A DNA stretch of 64,000 nt from contig CAZUBI010000001.1 of the NCBI GenBank assembly GCA_964618625.1, positions 254,930 through 318,929 of the forward strand. Reading direction: 5' to 3'. The stretch comes from an uncultured Candidatus Saccharibacteria bacterium (GTDB taxonomy: Bacteria > Patescibacteriota > Minisyncoccia > UBA6257). The position numbers and the translations under genes were made by a program. The notes under the pieces are model-generated. The model saw only the letters and a program-made list of their open reading frames with translations. It searched no databases and had not been told where the DNA came from. Below are positions 4,558 to 60,809 of this stretch, in pieces. How positions within the stretch are numbered: position 1 is the first letter of the stretch; every line of letters starts with the position of its first letter.

Positions 4558-4562
4558 AAAAT

Positions 4563-4976: not shown

Positions 4977-5018
4977 TATAATAATATTTTACTAGAAAGT
5001 ATTGAACAAAACAATCTA

Positions 5019-5051
5019 TCAAAAAACGGCTAAGATATTATCTTGACCGTC
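5019..5051 (-). terminator. hairpin + U-run terminator downstream of rpsT
   Basis: acggctaagat/atcttgaccgt stem followed by a T-run on the minus strand. Confidence 0.45.
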
Positions 5052-5075
5052 TATTTATAATTCATTAAATAAGAA

Positions 5076-5336: not shown

Positions 5337-5365
5337 AAAAGAATAAATCTTTATTGTGATTTAAT

Positions 5366-6313: not shown

Positions 6314-6315
6314 AA

Positions 6316-7632
6316 TTATTGAGATGGTATGTAGTCAGGGTCTATTGGCAAGGAAAAGGTAAAAATAGATCCTCTGCCTATTGCAGATTTGGCCCAAATT
6401 TTTCCTCCATGCCTATCAATCATATTCTTGGCTAAATACAAACCTAATCCGATTCCACCTGTTTGTCCTTTTAATGCCGCTTTGGATCTGAAAAACTTAG
6501 TGAATAATCTTGATAAATCTTCTCTGGAAATCCCAGTGCCTGTATCCTCAACTGAAATAAGTATAAACGGCTTTCCTTCAAAAGGATCTATTCTTATTCT
6601 AACATCCCCATTTTTTACATTATACTTAATCGCATTATCAACCAAGATTTCCAAAACCAATTTAATTCGCAATGGATCCATTACAAATGGCTTGAGTGAA
6701 AATTCTGGCCTGTGAAAAACTAACTTAACATCATCCATCTTTGCCACTGGTTCAAATTTGATTAAAACATTCTCTATAATTTTTTCTATGTCTGCCATAG
6801 AAAATTGAAAACCAAACCGTCCTTCTTCAATCTGCGCAACATTCAAAAGATCTTCCACGGTTTTTAAACTTTCTTTCATAGCCTTTCTTCCATCATCTAT
6901 AAGTTTTTCCTGCTCTAATGTTAAAGAACCCATTTCCTTTTTGGCAAGAATTTCTAATATCCATGATAAGCCAGAGAGAGGAGTTCGCAGTTGGTGAGCC
7001 ACTATCGTGATAAAATCGGATTGGGTTTTTTTTAATACTTCTTCTTTGGTTAAATCATGAATAATTCTCAAAAAACCATAGGTTTCCCCTTTTTCATCCA
7101 TAACTTTTGTCGTTATTATTTCCAAAATAAGTTCTTTTGGCTGATAAAATTTTACTTTTATTTTTCCTGGATAAGTATCTGTAGATTTTTCCAAAACAAC
7201 TGGAGCCAAGCTTGGAAAAATTAATTTAGACAAAAGCCCATAACGGGCGTCATTACTTAATTCAGGTGTAATATTTTTTCCCAGAAGCTCCTTTTTTGAT
7301 ATACCAAGAAATTCCTCCATAGCTTTATTAACTAAAATAATCTCAAAATTCTCAGTATAAGAAATAGCAGGATCATTAATACTGCCTATCATTGCGTTTA
7401 TCTGATTTCTTTCTAAATCCAAACGGCTAGCTGTATCAACCGCACCTAAAAGAATAACTGTTATTATTAAATAAAAAATTACTAGGGCAATATTAATAAG
7501 CCAATTTAAAGGCCAAATAATCCAAAGCACATTGAAAACAATCTGCGCTATAATCAAACCGCCCAAAAACCAGAAGGGCAATAATTGCGGCGAAGAAGAA
7601 TGTTTTTTTAGGTTTTGAAAAAAGTTAAACAT
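6316..7632 (-). CDS. sensor histidine kinase (2 TM, PAS-like, HisKA + HATPase_c)
   Basis: H-box HQLRTPLSGLSWILEIL; N/G boxes DTGTGISREDLSRLF...GGIGLGLYLAKNMI. Confidence 0.85.
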   Translation of the reverse strand: MFNFFQNLKKHSSSPQLLPFWFLGGLIIAQIVFNVLWIIWPLNWLINIALVIFYLIITVILLGAVDTASRLDLERNQINAMIGSINDPAISYTENFEIILVNKAMEEFLGISKKELLGKNITPELSNDARYGLLSKLIFPSLAPVVLEKSTDTYPGKIKVKFYQPKELILEIITTKVMDEKGETYGFLRIIHDLTKEEVLKKTQSDFITIVAHQLRTPLSGLSWILEILAKKEMGSLTLEQEKLIDDGRKAMKESLKTVEDLLNVAQIEEGRFGFQFSMADIEKIIENVLIKFEPVAKMDDVKLVFHRPEFSLKPFVMDPLRIKLVLEILVDNAIKYNVKNGDVRIRIDPFEGKPFILISVEDTGTGISREDLSRLFTKFFRSKAALKGQTGGIGLGLYLAKNMIDRHGGKIWAKSAIGRGSIFTFSLPIDPDYIPSQ

Positions 7633-7642
7633 ATATACAAAA

Positions 7643-40613: not shown

Positions 40614-40974
40614 ACTGATAGAAAAGTGTAATCATACTACAAATGGAGGTTCTTGCAACACAAAGAAGAATCAAGAGACAGGGTTGTATGAACCATGTGT
40701 GTTTTCAGAATGGACAGCATGGAAAAAACAATGTAAAGGTAAAGGCAAAAAAGAAACAATAAGATTTCTTCAGGATACTATTGTGTCTCTGGATTTAAAA
40801 ATGTGTCAGTGCAGAAAAAGAATAGAAAAAACATGGTGTAATCATAAGAAAACGGAAATGGAAATAAAAAATATTAAAAAACAGGTTCAAAAAGAAATAG
40901 ATAAAATTAATTCTAAAATTGAATCAATCTTAAGATCAAGTCGCTATAGCAAGAATCATCTAATCAAACTATAA
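40609..40974 (+). CDS. hypothetical Cys-rich small protein
   Basis: 121 aa; six Cys; followed by a clean terminator. Confidence 0.4.
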   Translation: MKLIEKCNHTTNGGSCNTKKNQETGLYEPCVFSEWTAWKKQCKGKGKKETIRFLQDTIVSLDLKMCQCRKRIEKTWCNHKKTEMEIKNIKKQVQKEIDKINSKIESILRSSRYSKNHLIKL

Positions 40975-41027
40975 TCTAATCATTATCTTCTCCTAATAAC
41001 TCATAATTATAAAGCTAGCTAGCAAAT

Positions 41028-41052
41028 AGGGAACCATCTGGGGTTCCCTTTT
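41028..41052 (+). terminator. rho-independent terminator
   Basis: GGGAACC-atctgg-GGTTCCC + TTTT. Confidence 0.65.
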
Positions 41053-41058
41053 AATTTA

Positions 41059-41136
41059 TTTGATTTCTAAAAGCTCAACTTCGAATATAAGAGTTGCATT
41101 TGGAGGAATTGCGCCAGGTTTTCCATTTTCGTTTTT
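41059..41136 (-). pseudogene. 26-codon C-terminal remnant of an FKBP-type peptidyl-prolyl isomerase
   Basis: minus-strand translation KNENGKPGAIPPNATLIFEVELLEIK* matches the FKBP C-terminus (GxIPPNATLVFDVELL); in-frame TAG immediately upstream, no start codon. Confidence 0.6.
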
Positions 41137-41170
41137 CTATTCTATCATAACTTAATCTATTTTTCAAAAT

Positions 41171-41218
41171 AAGAACCTTCGCTTCGCTCAGAATCTTGTT
41201 TCTCGCTTCGCTCGAAAT
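41171..41218. repeat. ~50-bp conserved intergenic element, copy A (tandem ~22-bp half-sites)
   Basis: aagaaccttcgcttcgctcagaatcttgtttctcgcttcgctcgaaat; related copies at 54935..54987 and 60758..60809 (rc). Confidence 0.6.
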
Positions 41219-41219
41219 A

Positions 41220-42197: not shown

Positions 42198-42323
42198 TTA
42201 ACTAATTTCTTTAGCTTCCATTCTACCCCTTCAGCAAGCTCAGGACAAACAAAAAATCTAAATCTTACCCATTTTTGCGCAAAGGGCTAAAGAGTATCAA
42301 ATCTCCCTAAAAAATTAAAGTAA

Positions 42324-43412
42324 TTATAATCTTTGAGTATCCTCCGTTGTTTCCTTTCTTTTCTTCTTTTTCAAAAGAAAATAGGCAACTATTCCAAGTA
42401 TTACAATTAAAGCAATTATACCCAGAATCAATGCCCAATTTGAACCTTCTCTTTCAACTCCATCCCCAGGTACTGTTCCATCTACGCCGTAATAAGGTAA
42501 ACCTTCTTCATCGTATTCTTCCTCCTCTACTACTCCTTCTGTTGTAATATTCAAAGTATAAGCAACAAGTTCCTTGCTGCAATACCTGTCACAGATAACA
42601 CCAATGAATACATTCTCACTCTTTGTTATTGGTACAGAATTTGTAACAATTGCACCAGGATTTGACGCGTATTCTTCTTTTAATACACTCCTATTGCTAT
42701 CATATACGGTTATGTTTATGCTTGCCTCGCTTGACGGAGTTACTTTAGCAGCCAAGGTTTGTCCTTTCTTAACAGCTACTTTGTAGAAATCCTTGGCATC
42801 TGTACCTTCTTTTCCAGAAAGATAAGATTTATATTCTCCTGATCCAACACTCATTGCTTTTTCAACTGTATCCCCGGCATCTGTCTGGCTTCCAGCATCA
42901 TAACGATCTATCAAGGATATATCTAGCGAATGTGAAGCTATCGTCCAAAGATCAGATCCTGTCTTTATGTAATATTTGTAGGAGGCTTTATCTGCATTTG
43001 GCAACCAAGAACTGCTAATTGACTCGGGTGTCTTATGAACAACTGCGTCATCTTCAACTACTGCTATTCTATCTTCATTATATAAAACCAGAATAGCAAT
43101 TGCTTCTTTAGATGCAGCAGTAAATGTACCCTTAATGTTGACTTCCTGTCCAGGTTTTACATTCTCAAGATAAAAGTATTCTGTTTCTTTATTCTCAAAA
43201 CTTCCCCCTCCCTGGTAACTTCCTGGTTCCAGTTTAACTGCTGTTTCAAAACCATCTCCGCCTTTTGGTAAAGCCTCTTGAGCATTAACAATTCCTATTA
43301 CTCCAATTAAAAGAATCCCAAAAAAGACAGCTATTGTTAAATTTTTAGCATTAATGGTTCGGCTTTGCTCACCATTAATCCTGAGCTTACTGAACGGATT
43401 AAATTTTGCCAT
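42324..43412 (-). CDS. hypothetical cell-surface protein with N-terminal signal/anchor and C-terminal TM anchor
   Basis: 362 aa; beta-rich; C-terminal ALILGIIALIVILGIVAYFLLKKKKRK. Confidence 0.45.
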   Translation of the reverse strand: MAKFNPFSKLRINGEQSRTINAKNLTIAVFFGILLIGVIGIVNAQEALPKGGDGFETAVKLEPGSYQGGGSFENKETEYFYLENVKPGQEVNIKGTFTAASKEAIAILVLYNEDRIAVVEDDAVVHKTPESISSSWLPNADKASYKYYIKTGSDLWTIASHSLDISLIDRYDAGSQTDAGDTVEKAMSVGSGEYKSYLSGKEGTDAKDFYKVAVKKGQTLAAKVTPSSEASINITVYDSNRSVLKEEYASNPGAIVTNSVPITKSENVFIGVICDRYCSKELVAYTLNITTEGVVEEEEYDEEGLPYYGVDGTVPGDGVEREGSNWALILGIIALIVILGIVAYFLLKKKKRKETTEDTQRL

Positions 43413-43431
43413 ATATTTTAAATTTTATTAA

Positions 43432-43465
43432 TATTTAATTAGCACTTACATTTAATTAGCACTTA
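43432..43465. repeat. perfect tandem duplication of a 17-bp unit in the promoter region of 42324..43412
   Basis: atttaattagcacttac x2. Confidence 0.7.
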
Positions 43466-43517
43466 CGACCTCTTTGATTATACCATCTTTAAAAATCTAG
43501 GGCTATTCTTTCCATTC

Positions 43518-43853
43518 CTAAGGTAGAAATCGAACATCATTACATTTGCGATTTATACATTTAATCTTTTCTACAATGGGTGCTTCCATACATTCGTATT
43601 CACAATAAAAGCAGTTTTCTAAAAACTGCTTTTCGCTTTTTCTTAATTCAACCAAATCTGCGTCTTTATGAACTAAATGATAGCAACCAAAAGGACACAA
43701 GTCTCCGCCTTCTACTATGCAATCAGAATCTACATCACAATAATTTGTCTGTTCTAAAAAAGCAAATATTTCCTCTTCTAACTTATTGCAATCAATTTCA
43801 GGGACAAAAATATTTTTCCAGATAAAAAATCCTCCCACGCCCAAACCAACCAA
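43518..43853 (-). CDS. hypothetical membrane-anchored Cys-rich small protein
   Basis: 111 aa; 12 Cys in the ectodomain. Confidence 0.4.
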   Translation of the reverse strand: MVGLGVGGFFIWKNIFVPEIDCNKLEEEIFAFLEQTNYCDVDSDCIVEGGDLCPFGCYHLVHKDADLVELRKSEKQFLENCFYCEYECMEAPIVEKIKCINRKCNDVRFLP

Positions 43854-43965
43854 AACTATTAAAATAATTATTGGTAATATTACCTTTTTTATAATCCAAG
43901 TTTCTTACTAATTTTTTATTAAATTTTGTATGCCGATCTTTTGTTTTTTAGATATAATCATCTTT

Positions 43966-45858
43966 TTAATCCTGGAATTCGGGTAGCTTTATCTCAACTT
44001 TGGCCTCTTTTCTTAAGTTTTTAAGTAAATTAGATCTCATAGTCCATGTCTTCTGTTCAGTAAGGGTCTTTTTGATTTCTTCTCTTGCCAGTTCAAGGTT
44101 GGGTTCCTGAGCCGGCTTTTTCTCTTCAACTTTAATAATGTGATAACCATAAGGTGTTTTTACTACTTCACTAATCTCTCCCGCCTCAAGAGCAAAAACG
44201 GCTTTTTCAAAATTAGGTGTCATCTTGCCTCGAGAAAAAAAGCCAAGGTCTCCGGCCTTATCTTTTGTACCAGGATCTATTGATTCCCTCCTAGCCAGCT
44301 CCGTAAAATCTGTTCCGTCTTTCAACTGGCTTAAAACCGCTTTAGCTTCTTCTTCTGTTCTGACCAAAATATGAGATGCCCTCACCTCTTCCAGCTTGGC
44401 AAAATTAGTCTTGTATCTTTCAAAATAATCCTTGATTTCTTGTTCAGTAACAGTTACTTTACTGGCAACAATTTTTTCCGTTAAAATTTGCAGTTCAACT
44501 TGCCGCCTTAACTCCTCAGTAGTCATACCCACTTCAGAAAGCTTTTCCGCAGTAACTTTAAGTTCATCTATTTTTTTATCAATTTCTTCCGACCTCACTA
44601 CTATATTTTGTTCTTTTGCTTTTTGCTCAATGATAATTTCGATAATCATAAATTCAAGGACGCCTTCACCAACAAGAGGTATAAATCTCTGAACAAATTC
44701 ATCCTCTGTCTCCTCAGCTTTCTGCCATGTGGCGACTTGCCTCATTTGGGATTCATTACTTTGGATATAAATCCAAAGTCTCTGAATAAATTCATCCTTA
44801 GTGATTTCTACACCATTGACTATTGCTGCCACATCTTCCTTGCCTTCCGTAGCCTTGGCAGAGGAGGATTTTTCTTCCTCAATTTTAGAAACTTCCTCCC
44901 CGGCTTCTTTTAATTCTATAAATTTGAAGCTTTTGTAAAATAATTCAAATTTATCGTCTTTGATAGCTCCATTGCCAATGCGAAATACCCTTCCATTATG
45001 TTCTACTATTATTGATTCAGAGTACCAATCAGGGTATTGCGACGGAGTAACAATAATTTTGAGCGCTTGAATATTATTCAACCTAATACTTTCTCTTTCT
45101 TCAAAACGACCCGTTTCATAAAATTGCCTACCAATTTCACTAATGACTTCGTCTTTTGACTTTTGAGAACTATCATAAAACCAAAGTCCCCACAAGATAT
45201 CTTCTCTTATTTCTTGTGGCGCTACACCTATTCCATTTTCAAAATCCACCCTTCTCCAATCACTCGGATATTTAATAGTGTATCCCACTTTAGAATCAAT
45301 AAATATTTGCCAATCAATTGTTTTTATTGTTTGCTGTAATTCTTCCTTTTTTGCTCCAGTTACTGCTTGGACAGCTTCTTCTGAACCCTTTCTTGAAACC
45401 TCCATTGCCTTTTTGATAGCTGGCTTGGCCTCCTCAGGAACTTTTTCAAATACTTCTGCCAATATTTCTTGATGCTTTAAAGTTTTTTCAGTAATTAAAA
45501 TTGCTAATTCCTCAATGTCCTTTCCTTTGTTTTGAGCGTCTTGAGTTTTTATGTTAGCTAACCCTAAAAATTCTTGATATTTCTTATTGGCTTTCTCCAA
45601 AGCCTTGATTTGATTCTTTTCTGCCATTGCCATTACCTCGGCTAATTTCTCTTCAGCATATTTTAATGCTTTCTCAGCTTTCTTTTCAACTCGAAAAGTA
45701 AAAAACATTCCTATTCTTTCACCCAAAGTATCAAGAAAATAAAATGGGCTGTCAGGAGTAAGACCTGGATCTGGTAATTCTATCCCCTGAGCCAAAACCT
45801 CTGCTCCAAAAGAAAGAATTAAAAATAGTAATGTTGTTAATAAAATTATTTTTCTCAT
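43966..45858 (-). CDS. parvulin-type peptidyl-prolyl isomerase (PrsA/SurA-like) with N-terminal DUF5667-like domain
   Basis: C-terminal rotamase HILV...GDLGFFSRGKM...GYHIIKV; N-terminal PDSPFYFLD motif shared with 27090..28073. Confidence 0.7.
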   Translation of the reverse strand: MRKIILLTTLLFLILSFGAEVLAQGIELPDPGLTPDSPFYFLDTLGERIGMFFTFRVEKKAEKALKYAEEKLAEVMAMAEKNQIKALEKANKKYQEFLGLANIKTQDAQNKGKDIEELAILITEKTLKHQEILAEVFEKVPEEAKPAIKKAMEVSRKGSEEAVQAVTGAKKEELQQTIKTIDWQIFIDSKVGYTIKYPSDWRRVDFENGIGVAPQEIREDILWGLWFYDSSQKSKDEVISEIGRQFYETGRFEERESIRLNNIQALKIIVTPSQYPDWYSESIIVEHNGRVFRIGNGAIKDDKFELFYKSFKFIELKEAGEEVSKIEEEKSSSAKATEGKEDVAAIVNGVEITKDEFIQRLWIYIQSNESQMRQVATWQKAEETEDEFVQRFIPLVGEGVLEFMIIEIIIEQKAKEQNIVVRSEEIDKKIDELKVTAEKLSEVGMTTEELRRQVELQILTEKIVASKVTVTEQEIKDYFERYKTNFAKLEEVRASHILVRTEEEAKAVLSQLKDGTDFTELARRESIDPGTKDKAGDLGFFSRGKMTPNFEKAVFALEAGEISEVVKTPYGYHIIKVEEKKPAQEPNLELAREEIKKTLTEQKTWTMRSNLLKNLRKEAKVEIKLPEFQD

Positions 45859-45897
45859 AATTTGTTACTTCTGTTACGTTTTTATATTATTAACTCC

Positions 45898-46248
45898 CTA
45901 TCCTAAGCGCCTTCTTTTTAGATGAACAACCAGACAAGAAATAAAATACAAAACTACGGCGTCAAAGAGTCCAATAAAAATAAGTCCGAGCAGATTTGGT
46001 CCCCCAATATCAAAAAACATTGCAGGATTAGTTGTGGTCAACCCTAATGCTCTGATAATTAGAAGAGGAGGAAAGAATAAGACAACTACAATGATAAACA
46101 CAAAAATATTGACAATGGGTATATTATGCAAAGCTAGTGACAATAGAAGAAAAGGAGAAATCAAAAGAAAAATTATGGATGCTGTTAATTTTCCCAAAGT
46201 AGGTTTTAAAAACTCTAATATATTCATTTGTTTTTTAAGTAAGTTCAT
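45898..46248 (-). CDS. hypothetical small membrane protein
   Basis: 116 aa, 3-4 TM helices. Confidence 0.35.
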   Translation of the reverse strand: MNLLKKQMNILEFLKPTLGKLTASIIFLLISPFLLLSLALHNIPIVNIFVFIIVVVLFFPPLLIIRALGLTTTNPAMFFDIGGPNLLGLIFIGLFDAVVLYFISCLVVHLKRRRLG

Positions 46249-46379
46249 TTTTAAAATCTAATTCATCGATTTGTATTAAATTAACTAAAGCTTCAAATTC
46301 TTTTTGATCCACGCCTTTCATTTTTTTAAAATTTTAACAACCCCCTTATTAGCATCAACCTCAACTAAATCGCCATCTT

Positions 46380-47003
46380 TTAACCAAATTTTCTTTTTGG
46401 TTTTAATAATTTATTTATTTTCTCTACAAGTTGTTCTTTTTCCTGATTATTATAATATCCTTCTATTTTACCAATAAGTTTTCCGCCTTTAAAAAACAAT
46501 AAAGCAGGAAGCTTTTTTATTTTATATTTCTTCAACAAAGAATCATCTTTTACTTCTGTTTTTTTATATTTTATATCCTCATCCTGAAATAATTCTTTTA
46601 TTGGAATTGAACGAAGTAAACATTCTATTGAGTTATTTTTAAATAATTCTGCTACAGCCAATTTGGTTGATTTTAAAATCTGAATATCAAATTTGTCTTG
46701 AGAAATTAAAAAACCTGGATGAATCGGCTGAGCTCCATATCTATCAACAAATAGATCTGAAATTTTCCTTGAATCTTCTTTAATCTCTTTTTTTATTTTT
46801 CTATACTCCTTTTCGGTTTTAGCAACTCTTATCGCACCGATCGGACAAGCTTCCTCACACTTACCACAGTTGATACATTTAGAATTATCAACTGCTATTG
46901 TTTTATTTTTATCATCCCAATAAAAGGCGCCAACAGGACATACTTCTATTCCGCCACAATCTTCTGTGTTGTCACAAATCTTAAAATTTATTAAAACTGC
47001 CAT
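46380..47003 (-). CDS. 4Fe-4S dicluster ferredoxin domain fused to a thioredoxin-like fold
   Basis: CxxCxxCxxxCP (CINCGKCEEACP) plus a second Cys cluster; C-terminal Trx-like beta-alpha pattern without CxxC. Confidence 0.5.
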   Translation of the reverse strand: MAVLINFKICDNTEDCGGIEVCPVGAFYWDDKNKTIAVDNSKCINCGKCEEACPIGAIRVAKTEKEYRKIKKEIKEDSRKISDLFVDRYGAQPIHPGFLISQDKFDIQILKSTKLAVAELFKNNSIECLLRSIPIKELFQDEDIKYKKTEVKDDSLLKKYKIKKLPALLFFKGGKLIGKIEGYYNNQEKEQLVEKINKLLKPKRKFG

Positions 47004-47033: not shown

Positions 47034-47066
47034 ATTCTACCAAAAAATCGCCTCTTTGGCGATTTT
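47034..47066. repeat. repeated terminator-like hairpin, copy 1 (AAAAAATCGCCTCTTTGGCGATTTT)
   Basis: 7-bp stem AATCGCC/GGCGATT, loop TCTTT, flanked by an A-run and a T-run. Confidence 0.8.
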
Positions 47067-47100
47067 AATGTGTTTCGACTGGGTTTAAACCATAATTAAT

Positions 47101-47937
47101 TTACGATGAATTAAGGACTTCTGATATTTTCAATTTCCCAAATTCATTGAATATGGTTTTAATACCAACCTCATTTTTCCACCATCCATTTTGTGCAAAA
47201 TTGCCAGTTGGTGTTACGGCTGAATTTACTCTGTACAACTTTGTATCTTGTGGAATATATTTCATCATATGTGCCCATGATCGCCTCATAGCAAACCATA
47301 CGGTTACGAGAATTATAGAATTATATGGTAATCCCAATTGATCCATCATATTCAATCCACCGCGCACATTATCTGGAACACTAATTGCAGTATCATGAAT
47401 AACTATACTTTCAGATGGAACATCATGTTCTATAGCCCATTCTTTAAATATTAATGCTTCTGACTTTTCTCGTTTTTCATAAATAGGCATACCACCAGAA
47501 ATGAAAATCTTAGGGGCCAACCCTTGTTTATATAAATCAACCGCAACTTCAATTCGTGATAAACTTTTACTTCCAAAGACAAAAATGACATCAGAAAGCT
47601 GAGGTGTATCCTCTTCACCAAAATATTTTGTTATGTCTTGCATTAAATTATCTAATTCCCTGTCTCCATCTTGAACCATACGTAATGTCCTAGAAACAAT
47701 TTGTGATTGTGCCTTCGCGCCAAGCACGACTAATTCCTGCCATGTGAGATTTTGATAAAAAATGTCAACAGGTAATCCAATTAATTCAAGCCAGCGAATA
47801 AATAATTCAAATCTAGCAAAGTGTTTATTTTCTTTCCCTATCGCGACTGGACGTTTCGCCTCTCGCTTAAGAATTGTTTCCAACTCTTTTACTGCGGGTA
47901 ATTCTGCTGAGTTTTTCCGATTTGAAATAATATTCAT
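47101..47937 (-). CDS. DUF218 (YdcF/ElyC-like) domain protein
   Basis: VIFVFGSKSLSRIEVAVDLYKQGLAPKIFISGG. Confidence 0.55.
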   Translation of the reverse strand: MNIISNRKNSAELPAVKELETILKREAKRPVAIGKENKHFARFELFIRWLELIGLPVDIFYQNLTWQELVVLGAKAQSQIVSRTLRMVQDGDRELDNLMQDITKYFGEEDTPQLSDVIFVFGSKSLSRIEVAVDLYKQGLAPKIFISGGMPIYEKREKSEALIFKEWAIEHDVPSESIVIHDTAISVPDNVRGGLNMMDQLGLPYNSIILVTVWFAMRRSWAHMMKYIPQDTKLYRVNSAVTPTGNFAQNGWWKNEVGIKTIFNEFGKLKISEVLNSS

Positions 47938-47945
47938 ATTTTAAT

Positions 47946-47978
47946 TCTACCAAAAAATCGCCTCTTTGGCGACTTTAT
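47946..47978. repeat. repeated hairpin, copy 2
   Basis: ctaccaaaaaatcgcctctttggcgacttt. Confidence 0.8.
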
Positions 47979-48892
47979 TATAATAACTTTTCTTGAGAAT
48001 ATCTTTTAAAGGCGTAAGTATAAATTAAATAAAACGCAGCATAACCTCGGTATTCTCCAAATGATTTGAATAATTTTCTCACCTTTTGCTCTGAAACTCT
48101 TTCCTTTTCGTTCAAATAAGCAGTCACGCTTATTCTTAGCCCCATATCATTAGCTGGAAGAACGTCATATCTGCCCATGCCCCGACACATCATATATTCA
48201 ACTGTCCAAGGACCAACACCTCTGATTTGAGTCAAAACATCCAAAATCCTTTCTTTATCCCATTTTTTCATTTTTTCTAGATTTATTTCTTGTTCGGCAA
48301 CTTTTTTTGATACATCAACTATATATTCAGATTTTTTAAGGCTAAGTCCAAGTTTTTTGATTTCTTCAGGTTTAACCTTAGCTAAAGATTCAGGGGAAGG
48401 AAAAGTATAGTATGTTTTACTGTTTATCTTTATTGACTTCCCATATTTTTCTACTAATCTTTTTCGTAAAGCGACAGCCACAGATAAGGCAATCTGTTGT
48501 TCGGTTATGGCAATTATTAAAGCCTCAAATACTGTCGGGGTTTTTGGGGGTCTTAAACCATAGAGATTTTTAATTATTTGAGCAAATTTTTTGTCTTTTA
48601 AACCAATTTTATAAAATCCCCTTATATCATCATCTATTCCAAGCATCCATTTTATCTTTTCTTCAATTAATGACTTCCCAGCTTTATCTGGCAAAATCTC
48701 TATTGAAAGTTTTGGTTTTTCTACTAAGCCTACTGACCTGACTTTTATAAGCTGAGTTTTGTCTTTGATTTTGAGAGCTCGCTCGTATACTCCATTACTA
48801 TAGTAATCAACACACTGAACAGGAAATCTTGAATAGAGACTCCCAACTAAATCAAAATTAAAGGGCGGTTTGGGTGTTATAAAGAATTTCAT
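47978..48892 (-). CDS. HhH-GPD DNA glycosylase (AlkA-like, DNA-3-methyladenine glycosylase II family)
   Basis: HhH-GPD motif LTQIRGVGPWTVEYMMCRGMGRYDVLPANDMGL. Confidence 0.75.
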   Translation of the reverse strand: MKFFITPKPPFNFDLVGSLYSRFPVQCVDYYSNGVYERALKIKDKTQLIKVRSVGLVEKPKLSIEILPDKAGKSLIEEKIKWMLGIDDDIRGFYKIGLKDKKFAQIIKNLYGLRPPKTPTVFEALIIAITEQQIALSVAVALRKRLVEKYGKSIKINSKTYYTFPSPESLAKVKPEEIKKLGLSLKKSEYIVDVSKKVAEQEINLEKMKKWDKERILDVLTQIRGVGPWTVEYMMCRGMGRYDVLPANDMGLRISVTAYLNEKERVSEQKVRKLFKSFGEYRGYAAFYLIYTYAFKRYSQEKLL

Positions 48893-48934
48893 TATTCTAA
48901 TTTTACCATACTATATTAAAAATTCTCAGCTTAA

Positions 48935-49045
48935 ACAAAAAACCGCCTCTTTGGCGATTTTAATGTATCTCGGTCTCCCGATAAAAAAGTTCGACGGCTA
49001 TCCCTAGGGCTATGGAACGATGTTGGAACCTATTTGGCAAAACTA
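48935..49045. repeat. repeated hairpin copy 3 with ~85-nt conserved extension
   Basis: aaccgcctctttggcgatttTAATGTATCTCGGTCTCCCGATAAAAAAGTTCGACGGCTATCCCTAGGGCTATGGAACGATGTTGGAACCTATTTG. Confidence 0.75.
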
Positions 49046-49615
49046 CAATAATCTTTTTTCTTTAAAGTTCTCTATATCTTCTGGCCGAAGAAGCACTGAT
49101 AAATCTGCATATTTTTGCATACCAAGTGAAGGAGCGTGTGAAAACCCAACATATTCTAGTTTCTTTTCTTTATGTTTAATATAGCAAACAGCTGGAATTA
49201 AGTCTGTATCAGAACTAACCAAAATAGCAGTATCATATAAATTATCTATTGCCCCTACGATTAAATCAACGGCTATTTTAACATCCGTGCCTTTTTCTCT
49301 TATTTTCCCTTCATCATACATAATTTTGCCACGTTTTATACTAAATCCTTCTTTTTCGATTCCTGATAAAAATTTCTGTTGACCTCGTACAATTTGTTTA
49401 CTCTTTTCAGTACCATTAAAATTTCTGGCAATTCCAACATAATATCTTTTTGATATACATTGACGTTCCCCAACGAGAAATTCTACAAACTTACTATAAT
49501 CGAACTTTAATCCTTCTGGGAAGCTAATCTCTTCATGTTTAAGATATTTGTAGAAATTATTCCCATCAATATAAACGACAACTTTCTCTTTTCTCTTAAA
49601 AGGTATGGTAGCCAT
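49043..49615 (-). CDS. NYN-domain (LabA-like) predicted RNase
   Basis: VVYIDGNNF...DVKIAVD...LVSSDTDLIPAV. Confidence 0.65.
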   Translation of the reverse strand: MATIPFKRKEKVVVYIDGNNFYKYLKHEEISFPEGLKFDYSKFVEFLVGERQCISKRYYVGIARNFNGTEKSKQIVRGQQKFLSGIEKEGFSIKRGKIMYDEGKIREKGTDVKIAVDLIVGAIDNLYDTAILVSSDTDLIPAVCYIKHKEKKLEYVGFSHAPSLGMQKYADLSVLLRPEDIENFKEKRLL

Positions 49616-49736
49616 ATACTTTAATTATACCATAAAAAAAAACTACCCTTGCCCAAAGGCAGGAGTAGTGCTTATAGTACTTTCATTATAGTCCTATTAA
49701 TTATTTTGTCAAGAGGATAATTGTGTATAAATTTTA

Positions 49737-49835
49737 TCAAAAAATCGCCTCTTTGGCGATTCCATGTATCTCGGTCTCTCGATAAAAGAACTAGACGGCT
49801 GTCTCTATGGAACAATGTTGGAGCCTATTTGACTC
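49737..49835. repeat. repeated hairpin copy 4 with conserved extension
   Basis: aatcgcctctttggcgattCCATGTATCTCGGTCTCTCGATAAAAGAACTAGACGGCTGTCTCTATGGAACAATGTTGGAGCCTATTTG. Confidence 0.75.
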
Positions 49836-50346
49836 TGTTATTTTCAACAAACTTTAAATAAATCTCCCTTAATAATCTCGCATCATCTAAGGCGTTATGC
49901 TCTTGGTACTTCGAAAAATCAACCCCCAATCTTTTACAAAATTTATTCTTATTTTCATTAAATTCCTCGGGATTAACTCCTGCAGCAAAAAGCATAGAAG
50001 CAAAATCAATAGGTATCCAATGAAAAGGATCTTTTTCTTCCTCAAGCAGTTTATAAAGATAAATCGCATCAAACTGACCAACATAAGCCAACATATATGG
50101 CTTTGAATCACCAATAAATTCCTTAATCTTCTGGACAGCAATTTTTCTACTTATTTTAAGTTCTGTAAGACTAGGGCTAATATTTTTCTTTACCCACTCG
50201 TCAATTTCACCATCATACTCTAACTCCATATACAATTCCTCGCCATTCGATCTAACTAAACCGATTGAGAGTATTTCTCCTTTGTATGGATTTAAACTTG
50301 AAAACTCTGTATCAAGAAAAATAATATTATTAGAAAATGGTTTCAT
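49825..50346 (-). CDS. DEDDh 3'-5' exonuclease (DnaQ-like fold)
   Basis: Exo I FLDTEFS; Exo III HNALDDARLL. Confidence 0.7.
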   Translation of the reverse strand: MKPFSNNIIFLDTEFSSLNPYKGEILSIGLVRSNGEELYMELEYDGEIDEWVKKNISPSLTELKISRKIAVQKIKEFIGDSKPYMLAYVGQFDAIYLYKLLEEEKDPFHWIPIDFASMLFAAGVNPEEFNENKNKFCKRLGVDFSKYQEHNALDDARLLREIYLKFVENNRVK

Positions 50347-50357
50347 ATATACCTCAT

Positions 50358-50388
50358 TTTACCAAAAAATCGCCTCTTTGGCGATTTT
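50358..50388. repeat. repeated hairpin, copy 5
   Basis: ttaccaaaaaatcgcctctttggcgatttt. Confidence 0.8.
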
Positions 50389-50425
50389 CCTTAGAACAGA
50401 AAGAGTTTTGTGATATGATATATCC

Positions 50426-50935
50426 ATGAAAGAAATTGAGCTTAAATTTAAAATAAAAAACTACAATAACACTAGATTAAAGATTGAAAGTACGGGTGCT
50501 GAATACAAAGGCAAATATAGACAGTTAGACCTTTGGCTTGATACTAAGAACAAAAGGCTTAAGCGTGAAAAAGAGGGATTAAGAATTAGGCAGCAGAATA
50601 ACAAGTCTGTGCTAACCTTTAAAAAAACTGAGCAATCTGATGGTAAATTTCGTGAAGCCGAGGAATTAGAAACAGAAATAAGCGACCCTAAAACCGCTCT
50701 TGAAATATTTAAAAGATTGGGGTTTGAAACGCGTGTAGAGATTAGAAAAGAAAGAGAAGTTTGGAAACTTGGCAAGGTAGAAATAAGTCTAGATGGAGTT
50801 AAAGACCTAGGTACATTTTTAGAACTGGAGGGTTCAAAGGAAAATATAGAAAAAGTTATTACAAAACTTGGGTTTAAAAGTCTATCGCGAATCATCAAAC
50901 ATTACGGAGAACTTCAGGAAGAAAAAAGAGGTTAG
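50426..50935 (+). CDS. CYTH-domain protein (triphosphate tunnel metalloenzyme / class IV adenylate-cyclase-like)
   Basis: N-terminal EIELKFKI (ExExK signature); 169 aa. Confidence 0.7.
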   Translation: MKEIELKFKIKNYNNTRLKIESTGAEYKGKYRQLDLWLDTKNKRLKREKEGLRIRQQNNKSVLTFKKTEQSDGKFREAEELETEISDPKTALEIFKRLGFETRVEIRKEREVWKLGKVEISLDGVKDLGTFLELEGSKENIEKVITKLGFKSLSRIIKHYGELQEEKRG

Positions 50936-50962
50936 GATTGAACTCTAGTTTCTCTTAAGCTA

Positions 50963-50993
50963 TTCACCAAAAAATCGCCTCTTTGACGATTCT
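50963..50993. repeat. repeated hairpin, copy 6 (degenerate)
   Basis: tcaccaaaaaatcgcctctttgacgattct. Confidence 0.7.
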
Positions 50994-50999
50994 AATTTG

Positions 51000-51071
51000 C
51001 TGCGGGACTTGGACTCGAACCAAGATCTTCTCCTCCAAGGGGAGACGTGACTACCATTGCACCATCCCGCA
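51000..51071 (-). tRNA. tRNA, probably Gln(TTG); unusual C at position 33
   Basis: hand-folded cloverleaf: acceptor TGCGGGA/TCCCGCA, T-arm CTTGG-TTCGAGT-CCAAG, anticodon arm TCTCC-CCTTGGA-GGAGA. Confidence 0.5.
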
Positions 51072-51800
51072 ATTTTTATAAATACCTTCAATCCATCCTT
51101 GAATCTTTCGATTCAAATTTATGCTTTTCTTCACAGAAATCCTAATTAATCCAAAATAATCTTTGCCAACATTTTTCCGATGAGTATTAATTTTGTTCTT
51201 TTTCCAAATTATTTTTTGAAAATCTTTTATAGGAAAACCTGTAGCTCTAGACCAATATTGTTGTACTTTTTTCAATTTATGCCGAGCCGTTACATGAAGA
51301 TAAATACGAACATTAATTTCTGATTTCGGTATTTTACAAATTTCATAAAGCCATTCTAAAAATATCTTTATTAAATATGGATCTGAATTTCCTAATTGAA
51401 CTAAACTTCCATTCAATTTTTCTTTACTGCCTTCCCCCCAATACAAAGCTGTACCAATCATCCATAAATCTCTTTCGCTAATATTCTTTATTTCATTTAT
51501 CGCTTCTTTTTTTATTTTCTTTGTAATAATCCTTTTTTGGTTTTTTCTTGCAAGGGCTCCGCGAAGCGCAGCTGATAATTTCTTTTTTGTTAATCTCTGT
51601 TTTTGTCTTTTACTTAACCCAACGCTTCTCAACCATAAAGACAATGTTGATTTGGCAACAGGAACTTTTTCTAATATTTCGGAATAAGAAAAGCCTCTCT
51701 TACGAAGCTTAATAGCTAATTCCTTTTCTTTATATTTTAATATCATCTGAACCACTATTAGTATTACTCTAATTATACTATCATGGTTCGATATTGTCAA
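51051..51800 (-). CDS. HTH + LAGLIDADG-like motif protein (putative free-standing homing-endonuclease-like), paralog of 57974..58603
   Basis: N-terminal HTH (ELAIKLRKRGFSYSEILEKV); ALYWGEGSK resembles LAGLIDADG (..GfiDGEGs); 3' end overlaps the tRNA 5' end by ~20 nt. Confidence 0.45.
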   Translation of the reverse strand: MTISNHDSIIRVILIVVQMILKYKEKELAIKLRKRGFSYSEILEKVPVAKSTLSLWLRSVGLSKRQKQRLTKKKLSAALRGALARKNQKRIITKKIKKEAINEIKNISERDLWMIGTALYWGEGSKEKLNGSLVQLGNSDPYLIKIFLEWLYEICKIPKSEINVRIYLHVTARHKLKKVQQYWSRATGFPIKDFQKIIWKKNKINTHRKNVGKDYFGLIRISVKKSINLNRKIQGWIEGIYKNCGMVQW

Positions 51801-54882: not shown

Positions 54883-54934
54883 TATTAATAGTTCTAACCA
54901 ATTATATCATAAAAAATTCTTTAAAATCAGAAAT

Positions 54935-54987
54935 AAGAACCTGTTCGCTTTGCTCCAGAACCTTGTTTCCTCACTCCGTTCAGAAAT
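54935..54987. repeat. ~50-bp conserved intergenic element, copy B
   Basis: aagaacctgttcgctttgctccagaaccttgtttcctcactccgttcagaaat; ~50 nt upstream of the pcm start. Confidence 0.6.
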
Positions 54988-55057
54988 AAAAGAAGTCCTT
55001 GTTGTTAAATCAAAAGGGCTTTTCTAAATAATATATTGGTCAAAAGAATAAGGTAAT

Positions 55058-55879
55058 CTATTCACCAATTCTGTAGTCTATGTCTTTTGGAGGAACAACC
55101 CGTCCGCCTTCAATATCTCGCTTGAGATAAAAACGGGGTTTGCCTATGACATCAAAAATTGTTTCATAAGGCTCAAAAGAAATCGCTTCTTCTCCAAAGT
55201 TTAAATTATTTAAATCTCGCACCATTAATACAAGCGTAGCAACAGCTGAAATTAAAGTAACTGATAAAAGAAGGGATGGTAATACAGGAACTCTAACCAA
55301 AAATATACAAAATATAAGTGTTGCTGCTAAAGATAAAATAACTAACCACTCCATCTTACCTAACTTATCCTTACCATCCATATATAACTTTTCTCTTGCT
55401 GTCGTTATCTGATTCAAAAGAGGTAACAAATTAGCGTAAGTTTCATCCTCTTTAACCGTTTCTAATTCTTTCACCTCTGCAAGTGATTCTATGATAGCAT
55501 TAAAATAAGGATCGAGTTTACCATAATCATCCCATTCTACTTCAAAAAACTTGCAAACATATTTATCAATAAGCTCTTGCTCTTTTTTCACCCATTCTCT
55601 CTGTTTGGGAAAACCATCCAGAATCTTTACAAATAAATAGTAAGTTTGTAATCCACTTACTTCTATTGCTACATTTGCTCTTATTCTTTGAAATCGCGAA
55701 TAGAGATCTGTAATAAAAAAACCTACAAGGATACCAAAAAGAAGGCCTGTCATTCCTAAAATGGAATTAATTGTCTCGTTAACTTCTCCGCTTGTTGGGA
55801 GGAAAAAAACAAATAAGAAGGATAGCGCTATTACTATAACTATTAGATATTTGGTTTTAATTTTTCTAAGAAAACCCAT
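55058..55879 (-). CDS. hypothetical membrane protein
   Basis: 273 aa, 4 TM helices. Confidence 0.4.
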   Translation of the reverse strand: MGFLRKIKTKYLIVIVIALSFLFVFFLPTSGEVNETINSILGMTGLLFGILVGFFITDLYSRFQRIRANVAIEVSGLQTYYLFVKILDGFPKQREWVKKEQELIDKYVCKFFEVEWDDYGKLDPYFNAIIESLAEVKELETVKEDETYANLLPLLNQITTAREKLYMDGKDKLGKMEWLVILSLAATLIFCIFLVRVPVLPSLLLSVTLISAVATLVLMVRDLNNLNFGEEAISFEPYETIFDVIGKPRFYLKRDIEGGRVVPPKDIDYRIGE

Positions 55880-55911
55880 AAAAAAATATATAAATTATTT
55901 TAATTATTAAT

Positions 55912-56307
55912 CTACATTGGAAGTAATCCTGTGCATCTCCAGTTTATCTCTGCCATTTTTGTTTCTACATTAATTACACAAGCAGGATTACAACCTTCTT
56001 TTTCTATATCTAAATCTATCCACCAAGTCCCAGTAACTTCATTGCATATATAAGTATCTTTCAGCTTATCACCGCATTGGCCCTGAATAGCAATTTCTTT
56101 AGCTTCTGACAAACTAAGTTTTATATCAGTGCCTTTTTTCTGGCAAAATTCCTCAGAAGAAATTGTAGTTGTCGTAGTTAATCCAATTGTCGTTGTTGTA
56201 GCAGAAGGAAGATTTATTGTTATAATCCCTTGATTTATTAAATATCCTCCAACAAACAACAATCCTAGTATTATAAAGAAAATTGAAGCTGATCCTTTTT
56301 TATTCAT
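55912..56307 (-). CDS. hypothetical secreted Thr-rich / Cys-rich small protein
   Basis: signal peptide, TTTTIGLTTTTT linker, 6 Cys. Confidence 0.4.
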   Translation of the reverse strand: MNKKGSASIFFIILGLLFVGGYLINQGIITINLPSATTTTIGLTTTTTISSEEFCQKKGTDIKLSLSEAKEIAIQGQCGDKLKDTYICNEVTGTWWIDLDIEKEGCNPACVINVETKMAEINWRCTGLLPM

Positions 56308-56393
56308 GTTTTTATTTTATATATTTGTTCTTATTTTACTATATTCTTAGTTAAAGCGAAAGTAAGAATTAATGAATAATGTCAGAATCTGTT

Positions 56394-57077
56394 TTAAACA
56401 TTAACTAACCTTTTGTTCTGCCAATATTCATAAAATGGTCCAATGATAAAACCAAACAAGAAATAGAAAATTAAATCTTCTAAAGGAATCCCGATGATAA
56501 TAATTCCACTTAAATATTGGGACATCCATGTTTTATGTATAAAACCGGGAAAAAGCCAAATAAAGGCATAATAAGATGGTAGCGATACAATAGCCATTAA
56601 AATCCCGCTGGCTAAAGCATTCAAAAACAGATCTCTTCTAGTATACAATATATAGATAGCTGCTGTTATCATTGCTATTGTACTAGCCCAAAATGAAGTA
56701 ATATTTAATCCCCAAAATAAAAAAGCAATTATAAAAAATAAAATCAAACAAATATTAAAGGCTCCGGTATCATTAGTCTTTTTAATGCGTTTTGATAATC
56801 TTTTTTTATATATAGCTCCATATAAAACCGCAGCTATACCACCATTACTAAATCCCAGTAGAAAATCCTCTATTCCTACTCTTGTATTAGTAATAGTTTC
56901 TGGCCTCCACCAATCAATTGTCCACCAAAGATAAGCAGTAATTACACTACCTATACCTACTAAAAAACTCATGAAGATCATTTCTTTTCTATAATCCTTA
57001 CGAAAGAAAAATAAAATCGCCCAAGGAATCAAAAAAACAATCGTTCCAACTAAATATGCATATTTAAAATTCAACAT
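56394..57077 (-). CDS. hypothetical polytopic membrane protein
   Basis: 227 aa, ~7 TM helices. Confidence 0.4.
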   Translation of the reverse strand: MLNFKYAYLVGTIVFLIPWAILFFFRKDYRKEMIFMSFLVGIGSVITAYLWWTIDWWRPETITNTRVGIEDFLLGFSNGGIAAVLYGAIYKKRLSKRIKKTNDTGAFNICLILFFIIAFLFWGLNITSFWASTIAMITAAIYILYTRRDLFLNALASGILMAIVSLPSYYAFIWLFPGFIHKTWMSQYLSGIIIIGIPLEDLIFYFLFGFIIGPFYEYWQNKRLVNV

Positions 57078-57174
57078 AATTTTCTGTAATTATAACCTAT
57101 TTGACTTCTTTAATTCAATAGAACCGTCTCTTCCAATTTTATAAAAATTGCGAAGCTTCATGATCAGAAAATTT

Positions 57175-57203
57175 AAAAAGGAGTAGACTACTACTCCCTT
57201 TTC
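57175..57203 (-). terminator. terminator downstream of the tRNA-rpmG transcription unit
   Basis: GGAGTAG-acta-CTACTCC flanked by A/T runs. Confidence 0.55.
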
Positions 57204-57401
57204 CTTTCTCTATTAATTAGGTCTCTATTAATCTGAAGCAATGTTTCCCTGATAAATTTTGTTTTTATATATAGAAAATAAAAATGTATTTTCAAGGTTC
57301 AAGCTAAACTAAGAATACTCTATTTTAGAGTATTCATATTATATAATATCTATATGGAAAAGTCAATGGTTGAGACAAGTCCACTGAAACTTTAGTGAAA
57401 G

Positions 57402-60757: not shown

Positions 60758-60809
60758 AATTTGAGCGAAGCGAAAATCAAGGTTCTGTGAACAAAGTAAA
60801 CAGGTTCTT
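60758..60809. repeat. ~50-bp conserved intergenic element, copy C (reverse orientation), in the rpmE 5' UTR
   Basis: aatttgagcgaagcgaaaatcaaggttctgtgaacaaagtaaacaggttctt; ends 13 nt before the rpmE ATG. Confidence 0.6.

Follow-up and report, generated by a model that had tools for sequence, protein, structure and literature searches.

Recognisable mobile elements are few in the very small genomes of bacteria of the candidate phyla radiation (CPR), or Patescibacteria, and to our knowledge the gain and loss of accessory genes in these bacteria is poorly understood. The attC sites of integron cassettes are imperfect palindromes of 57–141 nt with R''/L'' and L'/R' boxes and extrahelical bases, and the Correia elements of Neisseria have reported promoter and terminator activity for neighbouring genes. 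The locus described here is an array of six genes with six copies of one short hairpin, situated beside a tRNA-Gln gene in a 64-kb stretch (the window) of contig CAZUBI010000001.1. The closest described systems are the genomic islands of Prochlorococcus (built by tycheposons; Hackl et al.), which are additive and tRNA-seeded, contain scattered partial tRNAs and for the most part have no integrase at a given time (bioRxiv 10.1101/2020.12.28.424599).

We read the array as the proximal part of a tRNA-Gln-seeded flexible genomic island of a Parcubacteria-type (CPR) bacterium, in which the hairpin would be the terminator of the tRNA-Gln trailer, and give this reading a probability of about 0.65. 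The locus is a gene-swapping hot spot and not an ordinary operon, because related genomes hold different genes at the same spot. The gene content between hairpins differs strongly among relatives, which bears out the cassette-like array proposed in a preliminary description of the window.

Gene content beside tRNA-Gln

The same chromosomal neighbourhood is covered by seven of the genome loci with the hairpin (see below) and by 38 metagenome loci that we reached with FtsX as a guide (64–96% identity). The upstream flank is invariant and reads tRNA-Thr/Tyr/Thr/Trp ... PCMT-PrfB-FtsE-FtsX-tRNA-Gln-hairpin; the usual distal flank consists of obg, a gene of ~150–170 aa and HD-secE-nusG-L11. Between the tRNA-Gln hairpin and obg, the number of genes ranges from 0 to >10 across the 38 loci. 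The site is empty in L082 and L083, where tRNA-Gln, hairpin and obg follow each other; L005 has a single gene there, L019, L061, L069, L070 and L078 have two or three genes with hairpins between them, and the variable stretch of L065, L067 and L072 contains at least 10 genes. Clustering of the variable region gave 69 families for 131 open reading frames (ORFs), most of them seen once, with at least 20 different genes in first position.

The hairpin family keeps to the variable stretch: 67 copies lie in 103 kb of variable sequence, 0 in the 173 kb upstream and 1 in the 65 kb from obg onward. Junctions with a hairpin were conserved in 0 of 16 cases and junctions without one in 19 of 59 (Fisher p = 0.008). 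An analysis of the endpoints of high-scoring segment pairs gave a 3–6-fold enrichment of breakpoints near hairpins, a noisy figure since divergent genes fragment the pairs, and a junction test with 70-aa ORFs was uninformative since spurious ORFs make nearly all junctions appear variable.

The cargo pool includes RNase_T exonucleases, Xth-type nucleases, NUDIX proteins, methyltransferases, a tRNA-editing domain and NYN proteins, as well as cation efflux, CNNM, GH130, radical SAM and peptidase S9 proteins and a sigma factor with an ABC/MacB pair. The nucleic-acid repair and processing functions that had been proposed as the theme of the array are therefore present among the cargo, but the description is too narrow, as the housekeeping genes obg and PpiC-type foldase also shift position in the island. 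Orthologs of the CYTH, NYN and DUF218 genes at ≥60% identity were absent from the 38 islands found through FtsX, and the gene set of the window is unusual among the sampled relatives.

Five genes of the window (CYTH, DUF218, AlkA, exonuclease and ferredoxin-thioredoxin) recur in relatives with other neighbours. DUF218 is found together with the hairpin that follows it (hp1, numbered below) in L017, where obg stands behind it instead of the ferredoxin-thioredoxin gene and the similarity switches exactly at the TAGAAT box. AlkA has orthologs of 89–91% identity in L017 and L065, again with other neighbours: together with its hairpin and 5' region it stands behind obg in L065 and behind an obg 3' fragment in L017, and the gene after it there is NUDIX-like and not DUF218. 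An exonuclease ortholog (76%) lies directly behind the tRNA-Gln hairpin in L090, as does a ferredoxin-thioredoxin ortholog (93%) in L079, where core proteins average 82.5%; taken as a test of horizontal transfer, the comparison of cassette with core identity yields this one suggestive case only. The inverted CYTH gene and both its flanking hairpins recur in L106 (83% identity) between two unrelated genes, and a fragmented NYN relative adjoins a hairpin in L059. For CYTH, DUF218 and AlkA, similarity ends at the hairpin, at its -10 box or at the stop codon. Taken over all the recurring genes, most junctions coincide with a hairpin or its -10 box.

The hairpin module and the tRNA-Gln trailer

All genes of the array are on the minus strand with the sole exception of CYTH. 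In the direction of transcription the array therefore begins at tRNA-Gln, and not, as had been described, ends there. The order is FtsX, a helix-turn-helix (HTH)/LAGLIDADG-like gene, tRNA-Gln with hairpin hp6, CYTH (inverted), hp5 and exonuclease, hp4 with a small unit and NYN, followed by hp3 and AlkA, hp2 and DUF218, hp1 and ferredoxin-thioredoxin, the 116-aa protein, PpiC, the 111-aa and 362-aa proteins and obg. In window coordinates the features are:

51051–51800, minus strand: HTH and weakly LAGLIDADG-like gene, sharing 21 nt with the tRNA and placed between FtsX and tRNA-Gln
50999–51071, minus strand: tRNA-Gln (ARAGORN; Rfam tRNA, 53.7 bits), its adjacency to FtsX kept in 38 related loci
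50969–50993, minus strand: hp6, the tRNA-Gln trailer hairpin AGAATCGTCAAAGAGGCGATTTTTT, 5 nt after the tRNA, with one G·U pair on the minus strand
50426–50935, plus strand: CYTH-domain gene, the only inverted unit (Pfam CYTH, 1e-29), with its own TGnTATGAT box 6 nt before the ATG
50356–50388, minus strand: hp5 module, hairpin, T6 and TGGTAAAAT, 17 nt before the exonuclease ATG (TCGCCA-17-TAAAAT with TG)
49825–50346, minus strand: DEDDh (RNase_T family) exonuclease gene (Pfam RNase_T, 9e-9)
49731–49831, minus strand: hp4 module, consisting of a decayed tRNA-3'-like segment, the last 3 nt of tRNA-Gln with an L-type trailer CAGCCGTCTAGTTCTTTTATCGAGAGACCGAGATACAT, hairpin, T6 and TGATAAAAT
49640–49712, minus strand: small independent unit, candidate small RNA, with a TTGACA-16-TATAAT promoter and the hairpin CTACTCCTGCCTTTGGGCAAGGGTAG with T9 at its end
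49043–49615, minus strand: NYN-domain gene (Pfam NYN, 5e-20)
48900–49036, minus strand: hp3 module, consisting of a tRNA-3'-like segment, L-type trailer, hairpin (3' arm GGCGG, U·G pair) and T6
47978–48892, minus strand: AlkA-like HhH-GPD DNA glycosylase gene (Pfam HhH-GPD, 1e-15; AlkA_N, 4e-4)
47944–47976, minus strand: hp2 module, hairpin, T6 and TGGTAGAAT, 1 nt past the AlkA stop codon and 6 nt before the DUF218 ATG
47101–47937, minus strand: DUF218 gene (Pfam DUF218, 7e-16)
47034–47095, minus strand: hp1 module, trailer-end remnant CGAAACACATTAAAA, hairpin, T6 and TGGTAGAAT, with a second TATAAT 7 nt before the ferredoxin-thioredoxin ATG
46380–47003, minus strand: ferredoxin (4Fe-4S)-thioredoxin fusion gene (Pfam Fer4, 4e-10; Thioredoxin, 8e-5)
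42198–46379, minus strand: distal variable part, encoding a 116-aa membrane protein, a PpiC-type foldase and proteins of 111 and 362 aa
41220–42197: obg, the usual distal neighbour in relatives

The whole 64 kb was searched with AAAAAATCGCCTCTTTGGCGATTTT, allowing up to 3 mismatches, and in a looser pass with a 22-mer and 4 substitutions. Six matches with ≤2 mismatches were found, with starts at 47042, 47952, 48937, 49739, 50364 and 50969 (plus-strand coordinates); all share one orientation, and there are no further copies outside 47042–50993 in the 64 kb, even at 3–4 mismatches. The hairpin did not occur in 100 dinucleotide shuffles of the window. The six near-identical hairpins reported between consecutive genes are thus confirmed, as are, by the Pfam matches given above, the six gene families to which those genes had been assigned.

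Each copy has the minus-strand layout AAAATCGCCAAAGAGGCGA-T6-G-nTAnAAT with an ATG soon after, and alignment of the minus strands gives the conserved core AAAATCGCCAAAGAGGCGATTTTTTGGTAGAAT. On the gene strand the module reads AAAA-TCGCC-AAAGA-GGCGA-UUUUUU. The hairpin is ~25 nt long and folds into a 9-bp stem (7–9 bp perfect), in which 5 GC-rich base pairs are lengthened by A-U pairs, with a 5-nt loop and a U6 tract behind; the copies have fold energies of about -11 to -13 kcal/mol (z -2.9 to -4.1). This is the standard anatomy of an intrinsic terminator, and the hairpin is likely to be one on the minus strand, in agreement with the direction first proposed. Terminator-like hairpins elsewhere in the window have different stems, one of them at 4977–5075 having the same design of terminator hairpin, T-run, G and TAnAnT, and most genes elsewhere in the window form tight operons without such spacers. 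Within the array, the genes on either side of hp5 diverge, hp6 separates tRNA-Gln from the convergent CYTH gene, and the upstream sides of hp3 and hp4 have an extra repeat of ~85 nt in common. An Rfam scan of the hairpin with its flanks, at gathering and permissive thresholds, returned only tRNA-Gln and otherwise chance-level small RNA matches (E ≥0.1).

In four of the six copies an extended -10 box with TG directly follows the T-run (TGGTAGAAT twice, TGATAAAAT and TGGTAAAAT). In a promoter consensus scan, TCGCCA of the 5' arm occupies the -35 position with a 17-bp spacer to the -10 box, and the part of the module after the T-run is likely an extended -10 promoter. The preliminary description had rightly seen -10-like boxes between hairpin and start codon, although it counted two. 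The distances from hairpin to ATG are 38, 14, 44, 123 and 17 nt; the range of 9–45 nt given earlier covers all but the 123 nt of the NYN gene. A -10-like box ends 6–9 nt 5' of the ATG in all six genes, and the box nearest the ATG is of the TGn type in four of them (DUF218, AlkA, NYN and CYTH). The likely AlkA promoter, TGGTAAAAT in the hp3 module, ends 7 nt before the ATG, and a hairpin-adjacent TGn box lies 6–30 nt upstream of the DUF218, exonuclease and ferredoxin-thioredoxin genes. Boxes at 6–9 nt from the ATG imply leaderless or near-leaderless mRNAs, so the predicted signals are consistent with the very short leaders that had been suspected.

The boundary module clearly appears to derive from the tRNA-Gln trailer. 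In the clade, this trailer has a short (S-type) form, ...CCCGCAG-C-AAATTAGAA-hairpin, and a long (L-type) form, ...CCCGCAG-CCGTCTAG-T7-ATCGAGAGACCGAGAYACAT-YAAAA-hairpin, and the arrangement of tRNA-Gln, trailer and hairpin seen in the window is also found in L005, L063, L065, L075, L090 and others. Internal hairpins often have in front of them a copy of the trailer and 0–27 nt of the tRNA-Gln 3' end. In L029 and L077, 24–27 nt of the tRNA-Gln end are present and the T-loop GGTTCGAATCC is kept, and in the S-type elements AAATAGGTTCCAACATCGTTCCATAGCCCCAGCAAATTAGAA ~17 nt align to the T-stem and acceptor end of tRNA-Gln (0/2000 shuffles). In the window, hp4 carries CAG and a long trailer with 13/13 identity to the tRNA-Gln end and trailer of relatives (0/2000 shuffles); the trailer at hp3 is likewise long, its tRNA-like part being more decayed and not significant alone, hp1 retains the trailer end only, and hp2 and hp5 have no trailer copy. 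Apart from the tRNA-like part of hp3, the partial tRNA copies, those of L029 and L077 included, are significant against shuffles. The window thus mixes two trailers, the short one at its own tRNA-Gln and the long one at hp3 and hp4, indicating that the latter modules come from a different tRNA-Gln context. The partial copies of tRNA and trailer point to common descent of the hairpin copies and are the signature of repeated insertion at the 3' end of the tRNA.

We scanned 185,579 species-representative genomes for exact matches to the 22-mer TCGYCAAAGAGGCGRTTTTTTG. It occurs at 58 loci in ~45 metagenome-assembled genomes (MAGs), where by our own estimate ~0.3 matches are expected for 1.2e12 positions. 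The labels of nearly all of these MAGs are Patescibacteria, Parcubacteria, Paceibacteria, Nealson-, Wildermuth-, Uhr-, Moranii- or Torokbacteria, or unclassified 'bacterium'; we infer mis-binning for three short contigs whose bins carry the label Methanosarcinales or Armatimonadota. In one MAG, which includes contigs of 225 and of 314 kb, just two exact copies occur. A co-directional ORF or tRNA ends within 200 nt upstream in 80% of the 154 family members; the upstream feature is a tRNA in 25 of them, and in 24 of these 25 it is tRNA-Gln. A co-directional ORF starts within 200 nt in 75% of the family, at a median of 24 nt past T6G. TGnTAnnnT stands right behind the T-run in 125 of 151 unique members, and 11 others have a TTGCCC-type promoter. 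Identical modules of 30–38 nt are shared by distant lineages of Parcubacteria.

Across the family, loops vary (AAAGA, AAAAA, AAGAA and others) and the stem is kept. On the sense strand the stem positions give 656 Watson-Crick pairs, 71 G·U pairs and 18 mismatches, on the antisense strand 656, 13 and 76, respectively, and two compensatory stem variants are found (TCGTC/GACGA and TCGCT/AGCGA). The G·U asymmetry and the compensatory changes indicate selection on an RNA hairpin in the sense transcript, which does not suit a symmetric DNA site. A palindromic operator for a dimeric repressor was rejected, since one-third of the copies break the DNA symmetry (GGCGG) and keep the RNA pairing. We also rejected a DNA-uptake sequence, of the kind in which inverted repeats act as terminators near genome-maintenance genes, since the copies are few and confined to the island.

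Several further observations concern the hairpin and its neighbours. In L097 (~770–800) one hairpin has an inverted loop, TCGCCTATTTGGCGA, with stem, T-run and -10 box unchanged, and in L017 (2867–3027) a 160-nt duplicate of the 3' end of obg abuts the hairpin; both are recombination footprints at the module. Among 104 proteins of 240–460 aa near hairpins in the distant Parcubacteria loci L005–L062, PDDEXK_1 (PD-(D/E)XK nuclease) is the commonest Pfam family, with six members. L104, a more distant CPR genome, has a CYTH homolog (60%) in a block at 2369–8606 inserted between ftsW and murG of the cell-division cluster; besides this homolog, the block comprises small genes of nucleotide and DNA-repair function (Xth, methyltransferase, dCMP deaminase, 3-methyladenine glycosylase and NUDIX) and, at 3122–3148, a partial hairpin-like sequence, GGCGGTTTTTTGGTAGAAT.

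The small unit at 49640–49712 behaves as a separate cassette and is a candidate small RNA gene. Its predicted transcript is ~45–50 nt long and its terminator hairpin has a dG of -21.9 (z -3.4); TGGTATAAT lies behind its T9, 8 nt before the NYN ATG. The unit is kept in L072 before a different gene and partly in L059.

The HTH gene at 51051–51800 is sporadic in its position between FtsX and tRNA-Gln (among relatives in L068, L069, L079, L091, L096 and L100), and paralogs in L073 and L094 are inserted within the tRNA-Thr/Tyr/Trp cluster. It belongs to a family of >1800 unannotated proteins. Its C-terminal domain has a weak fold similarity to LAGLIDADG endonucleases, and Foldseek gave no significant match. 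The gene may be a homing-type gene of tRNA-adjacent sites that aids local recombination; most variable loci have no HTH gene.

At the other end of the array, the 545 nt directly after obg (40675–41219) contain no ORF of ≥60 aa. The counterpart in relatives is a membrane protein gene of ~150–170 aa, of which only ~100 nt (41027–41130) still match, and the segment is probably a decayed gene. Another repeat motif, GAGCGAAGCGA, occurs at four sites against 0.36 expected, within 41179–41213, 54945–54955 (minus strand) and 60763–60773 (plus strand); its sites have similar flanks (..GGTTCTTATTT..) and lie in three long intergenic regions. Elsewhere in the window, a 983-aa RtcB RNA ligase (1606–4557, minus strand) is split by an intein (Intein_splicing match) and adjoined by an archease gene (4563–4976, minus strand), and a 964-aa T2SSE/PilB-type ATPase (10829–13723, plus strand) matches Pfam in two stretches, so that an intein or insertion is possible.

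Weighing the explanations

If the array is a tRNA-seeded island, the ~38-nt module would end the upstream transcript and start the next one, and a gene between two modules would form a self-contained, nearly leaderless transcription unit. Recombination in the module or beside it would add new units next to the tRNA or exchange them, each event leaving another copy of the module and often a piece of the tRNA 3' end and trailer, and units would also be shuffled and lost over time. The enzyme may be an integrase that acts in trans or has since been lost, as for other tRNA-seeded islands; RecA or microhomology recombination between module copies is the other candidate.

A number of observations weigh against this reading. 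A nearby integrase or recombinase was not seen: no integrase, transposase, RAYT (REP-associated tyrosine transposase) or other recombinase domain was detected with Pfam in the ~50 window ORFs scanned, none was present among 51 representative cassette proteins of relatives (38 loci, ~100 kb of variable sequence), and no recurrent recombinase family emerged from the 104 proteins near hairpins in distant MAGs. The junctions keep to no fixed nucleotide: some coincide with the -10 box, others precede the stem by a few bases or come right after a stop codon. In relatives, a hairpin could not be detected between some neighbouring units, independence is lacking for many of the compared loci, which stem from related populations, and the terminator and promoter activities assigned to the module are read from its sequence anatomy. 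Finally, the stretch from tRNA-Trp to PCMT (54883–57400, minus strand) also differs in gene content (L065, L066, L073, L074, L079 and L082). In this second flexible stretch neither TCGCC hairpins nor a repeated tRNA-Trp trailer were found; hairpins are hence not required for variability.

A first rival is a true integron-like system, in which the hairpin, as a single-stranded DNA fold or as part of a tRNA-end att site, would be the target of a recombinase of its own, with the gene for that enzyme lying elsewhere in the genome or on a transient element. Such an enzyme would excise promoter-bearing single-gene cassettes and insert them beside tRNA-Gln. Units with the same hairpin on both sides do recur elsewhere, as in the hairpin-CYTH-hairpin unit of L106; the identical 30–38-nt modules of distant Parcubacteria are expected if incoming elements overwrite the tRNA-proximal copy; and the partial tRNA-Gln ends at internal copies, the S-type and L-type trailers within one array and the inverted loop of L097 all agree with it. 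The enzyme itself, however, is missing from the ORFs and variable regions that we scanned, the hairpin has no attC feature, and its variation preserves RNA pairing on the gene strand (G·U) rather than a symmetric DNA site. Viral contigs scanned with two hairpin patterns gave 0 matches, leaving a phage vector unsupported. The variable junction positions fit an untidy recombination better than a clean site-specific reaction; homologous or microhomology recombination, or decay after integrase action, fits them at least as well as a site-specific reaction. We regard the integron-like system as unlikely. An integrase-bearing element that targets the tRNA-Gln site was not seen in ~45 loci, though transient elements may be missed.

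Alternatively, the hairpin could be a selfish palindrome like the repetitive extragenic palindromic (REP) sequences or miniature inverted-repeat transposable elements, inserted between pre-existing genes by a REP-associated tyrosine transposase (RAYT), an IS200/IS605-type enzyme or slippage, the variability of gene content being a separate property of a tRNA hot spot. It is short, palindromic and extragenic, copies of one genome have loop and flank variants in common (L050, L048 and L013), and hairpins lie 1 nt past stop codons (hp2, L065); REP sequences are described as palindromes of 20–40 bp with proposed terminator roles (PMC3733652). Nevertheless, the copies are confined to the island and not dispersed, their orientation always matches that of the genes, with a -10 box and start codon attached, and tRNA trailer copies accompany them. 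No RAYT or Y1_Tnp-type domain was matched in the window ORFs, and in most copies no GTAG or CGTC head stands directly at the stem; GTAG occurs only within the -10 box, 7 nt from the stem, and CGTC just upstream in a few distant copies. A selfish palindrome is correspondingly improbable, and the kinship with REP-punctuated arrays that had been suggested at the outset is not supported as membership, nor is that with integrons: each unit here has a promoter-like box, neither intI nor another recombinase was found in the window ORFs and related loci scanned, and the hairpin shows no attC features.

The more prosaic readings fare worse. Six monocistronic genes in a row, each with a well-conserved but ordinary generic terminator and no bearing on mobility, would fit the use of the same design with other stems elsewhere (4977–5075) and the loop variants in relatives, which show ordinary drift. 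The other terminators of the window, however, use different stems; the hairpin is absent from the other ~55 kb of the window and present once in the 238 kb of conserved flanks, so that it is not the generic terminator of the genome, and the partial tRNA and trailer copies show common descent. Content and order differ strongly among relatives, and the generic-terminator reading, already contradicted by these results, is very improbable. Chimeric joins at short repeats could make the shuffling or the order in the window unreal. The locus comparisons rest on metagenome contigs, and hp5 and hp3 are the exact points at which Logan contigs (k=31) of the source population (to which runs SRR8482191–98 belong) break off, indicating that the repeat disturbs assembly graphs. 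Reads and the final k of MEGAHIT or SPAdes, however, exceed the module (~40–100 nt) in length, identical arrangements are seen again in independent samples (L068 = L069, L070 = L071, L082 = L083; L004 in seven samples), and flank synteny is perfectly consistent. We consider an assembly artefact scarcely credible.

A bolder reading deserves mention, although we consider it doubtful: the module may be the universal adapter of a cassette exchange specific to Parcubacteria, providing termination and promotion for any gene behind it and serving as the recombination site as well. In the latter role it would be an att- or attC-like target of a trans-acting recombinase, or a short anchor for DNA taken up from relatives. 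If true, this would explain both the identical non-coding sequence across order-level lineages and the trade in accessory genes among integrase-poor ultra-small genomes.

Comparison with described systems

The 22–38-nt motif beside tRNA-Gln is an easily searchable marker of a flexible gene pool in many Parcubacteria MAGs, a pool that covers DNA-repair and RNA-processing enzymes, NUDIX hydrolases, methyltransferases and transporters. The design is compact, in that a single element apparently ends and starts transcription, which would allow each acquired gene to be expressed alone. Should the module be a recombination site, it would represent an integron-like system without a linked integrase; otherwise it is still useful for strain-level pangenomes, for the annotation of CPR promoters and terminators and for spotting assembly breaks at the repeat. 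Literature searches for CPR terminator or promoter repeats and for CPR integrons returned nothing relevant, and a description of such a duplicated terminator-promoter module was not found in the searchable literature.

Integron arrays share with the locus their one-directional, mostly single-gene units, a short palindromic boundary, a content that varies among close relatives and one fixed anchor end. Here, in contrast, the anchor is a tRNA gene, intI was not found in the ORFs scanned, and there is no attI. The hairpin is perfect and ~25 nt long, and lacks the R/L boxes, extrahelical bases and 57–141 nt length of attC. Whereas integron cassettes are mostly promoterless and share the Pc promoter, each unit here has a promoter-like box and a terminator-like hairpin, and the housekeeping genes obg and PpiC-type foldase take part.

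REP sequences, the mosaic elements that they form (BIMEs) and Correia elements resemble the hairpin as short extragenic palindromes that are able to act as terminators and whose family members within a genome resemble each other. Unlike them, the hairpin is not dispersed and has neither terminal inverted repeats nor target duplications, no RAYT was found, its orientation is tied strictly to that of the genes, and it derives from a tRNA trailer. Canonical intrinsic terminators and TGn promoters have the same parts as the module, with a 5-bp GC-rich stem, A-U extension, 5-nt loop and U6 in the former and the sequence and spacing of TGnTAnAAT in the latter. In the module, terminator and promoter signals merge, with the T-tract of the former serving as the region just upstream of the TG, and while single terminators are normally not so conserved, the whole 38-nt unit is copied nearly base-for-base across order-level lineages.

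The locus fits best as a tRNA-seeded additive island. With the islands of Prochlorococcus it shares a streamlined genome, a position directly downstream of one specific tRNA gene, a heterogeneity that peaks beside the tRNA, partial tRNA 3' ends, a small niche or accessory cargo and the lack of an integrase in most islands at any one time. It differs in its CPR host, in having units that are mostly single genes of 0.5–1 kb, in junctions that are not uniform and in that no integrase-bearing element was seen at the site in ~45 loci. Also, the repeat runs past the tRNA fragment into a conserved terminator-like hairpin and a putative extended -10 promoter. The unusual feature is that the duplicated boundary is, by its predicted signals, a complete terminator-promoter module, and that this module is conserved across distant Parcubacteria.

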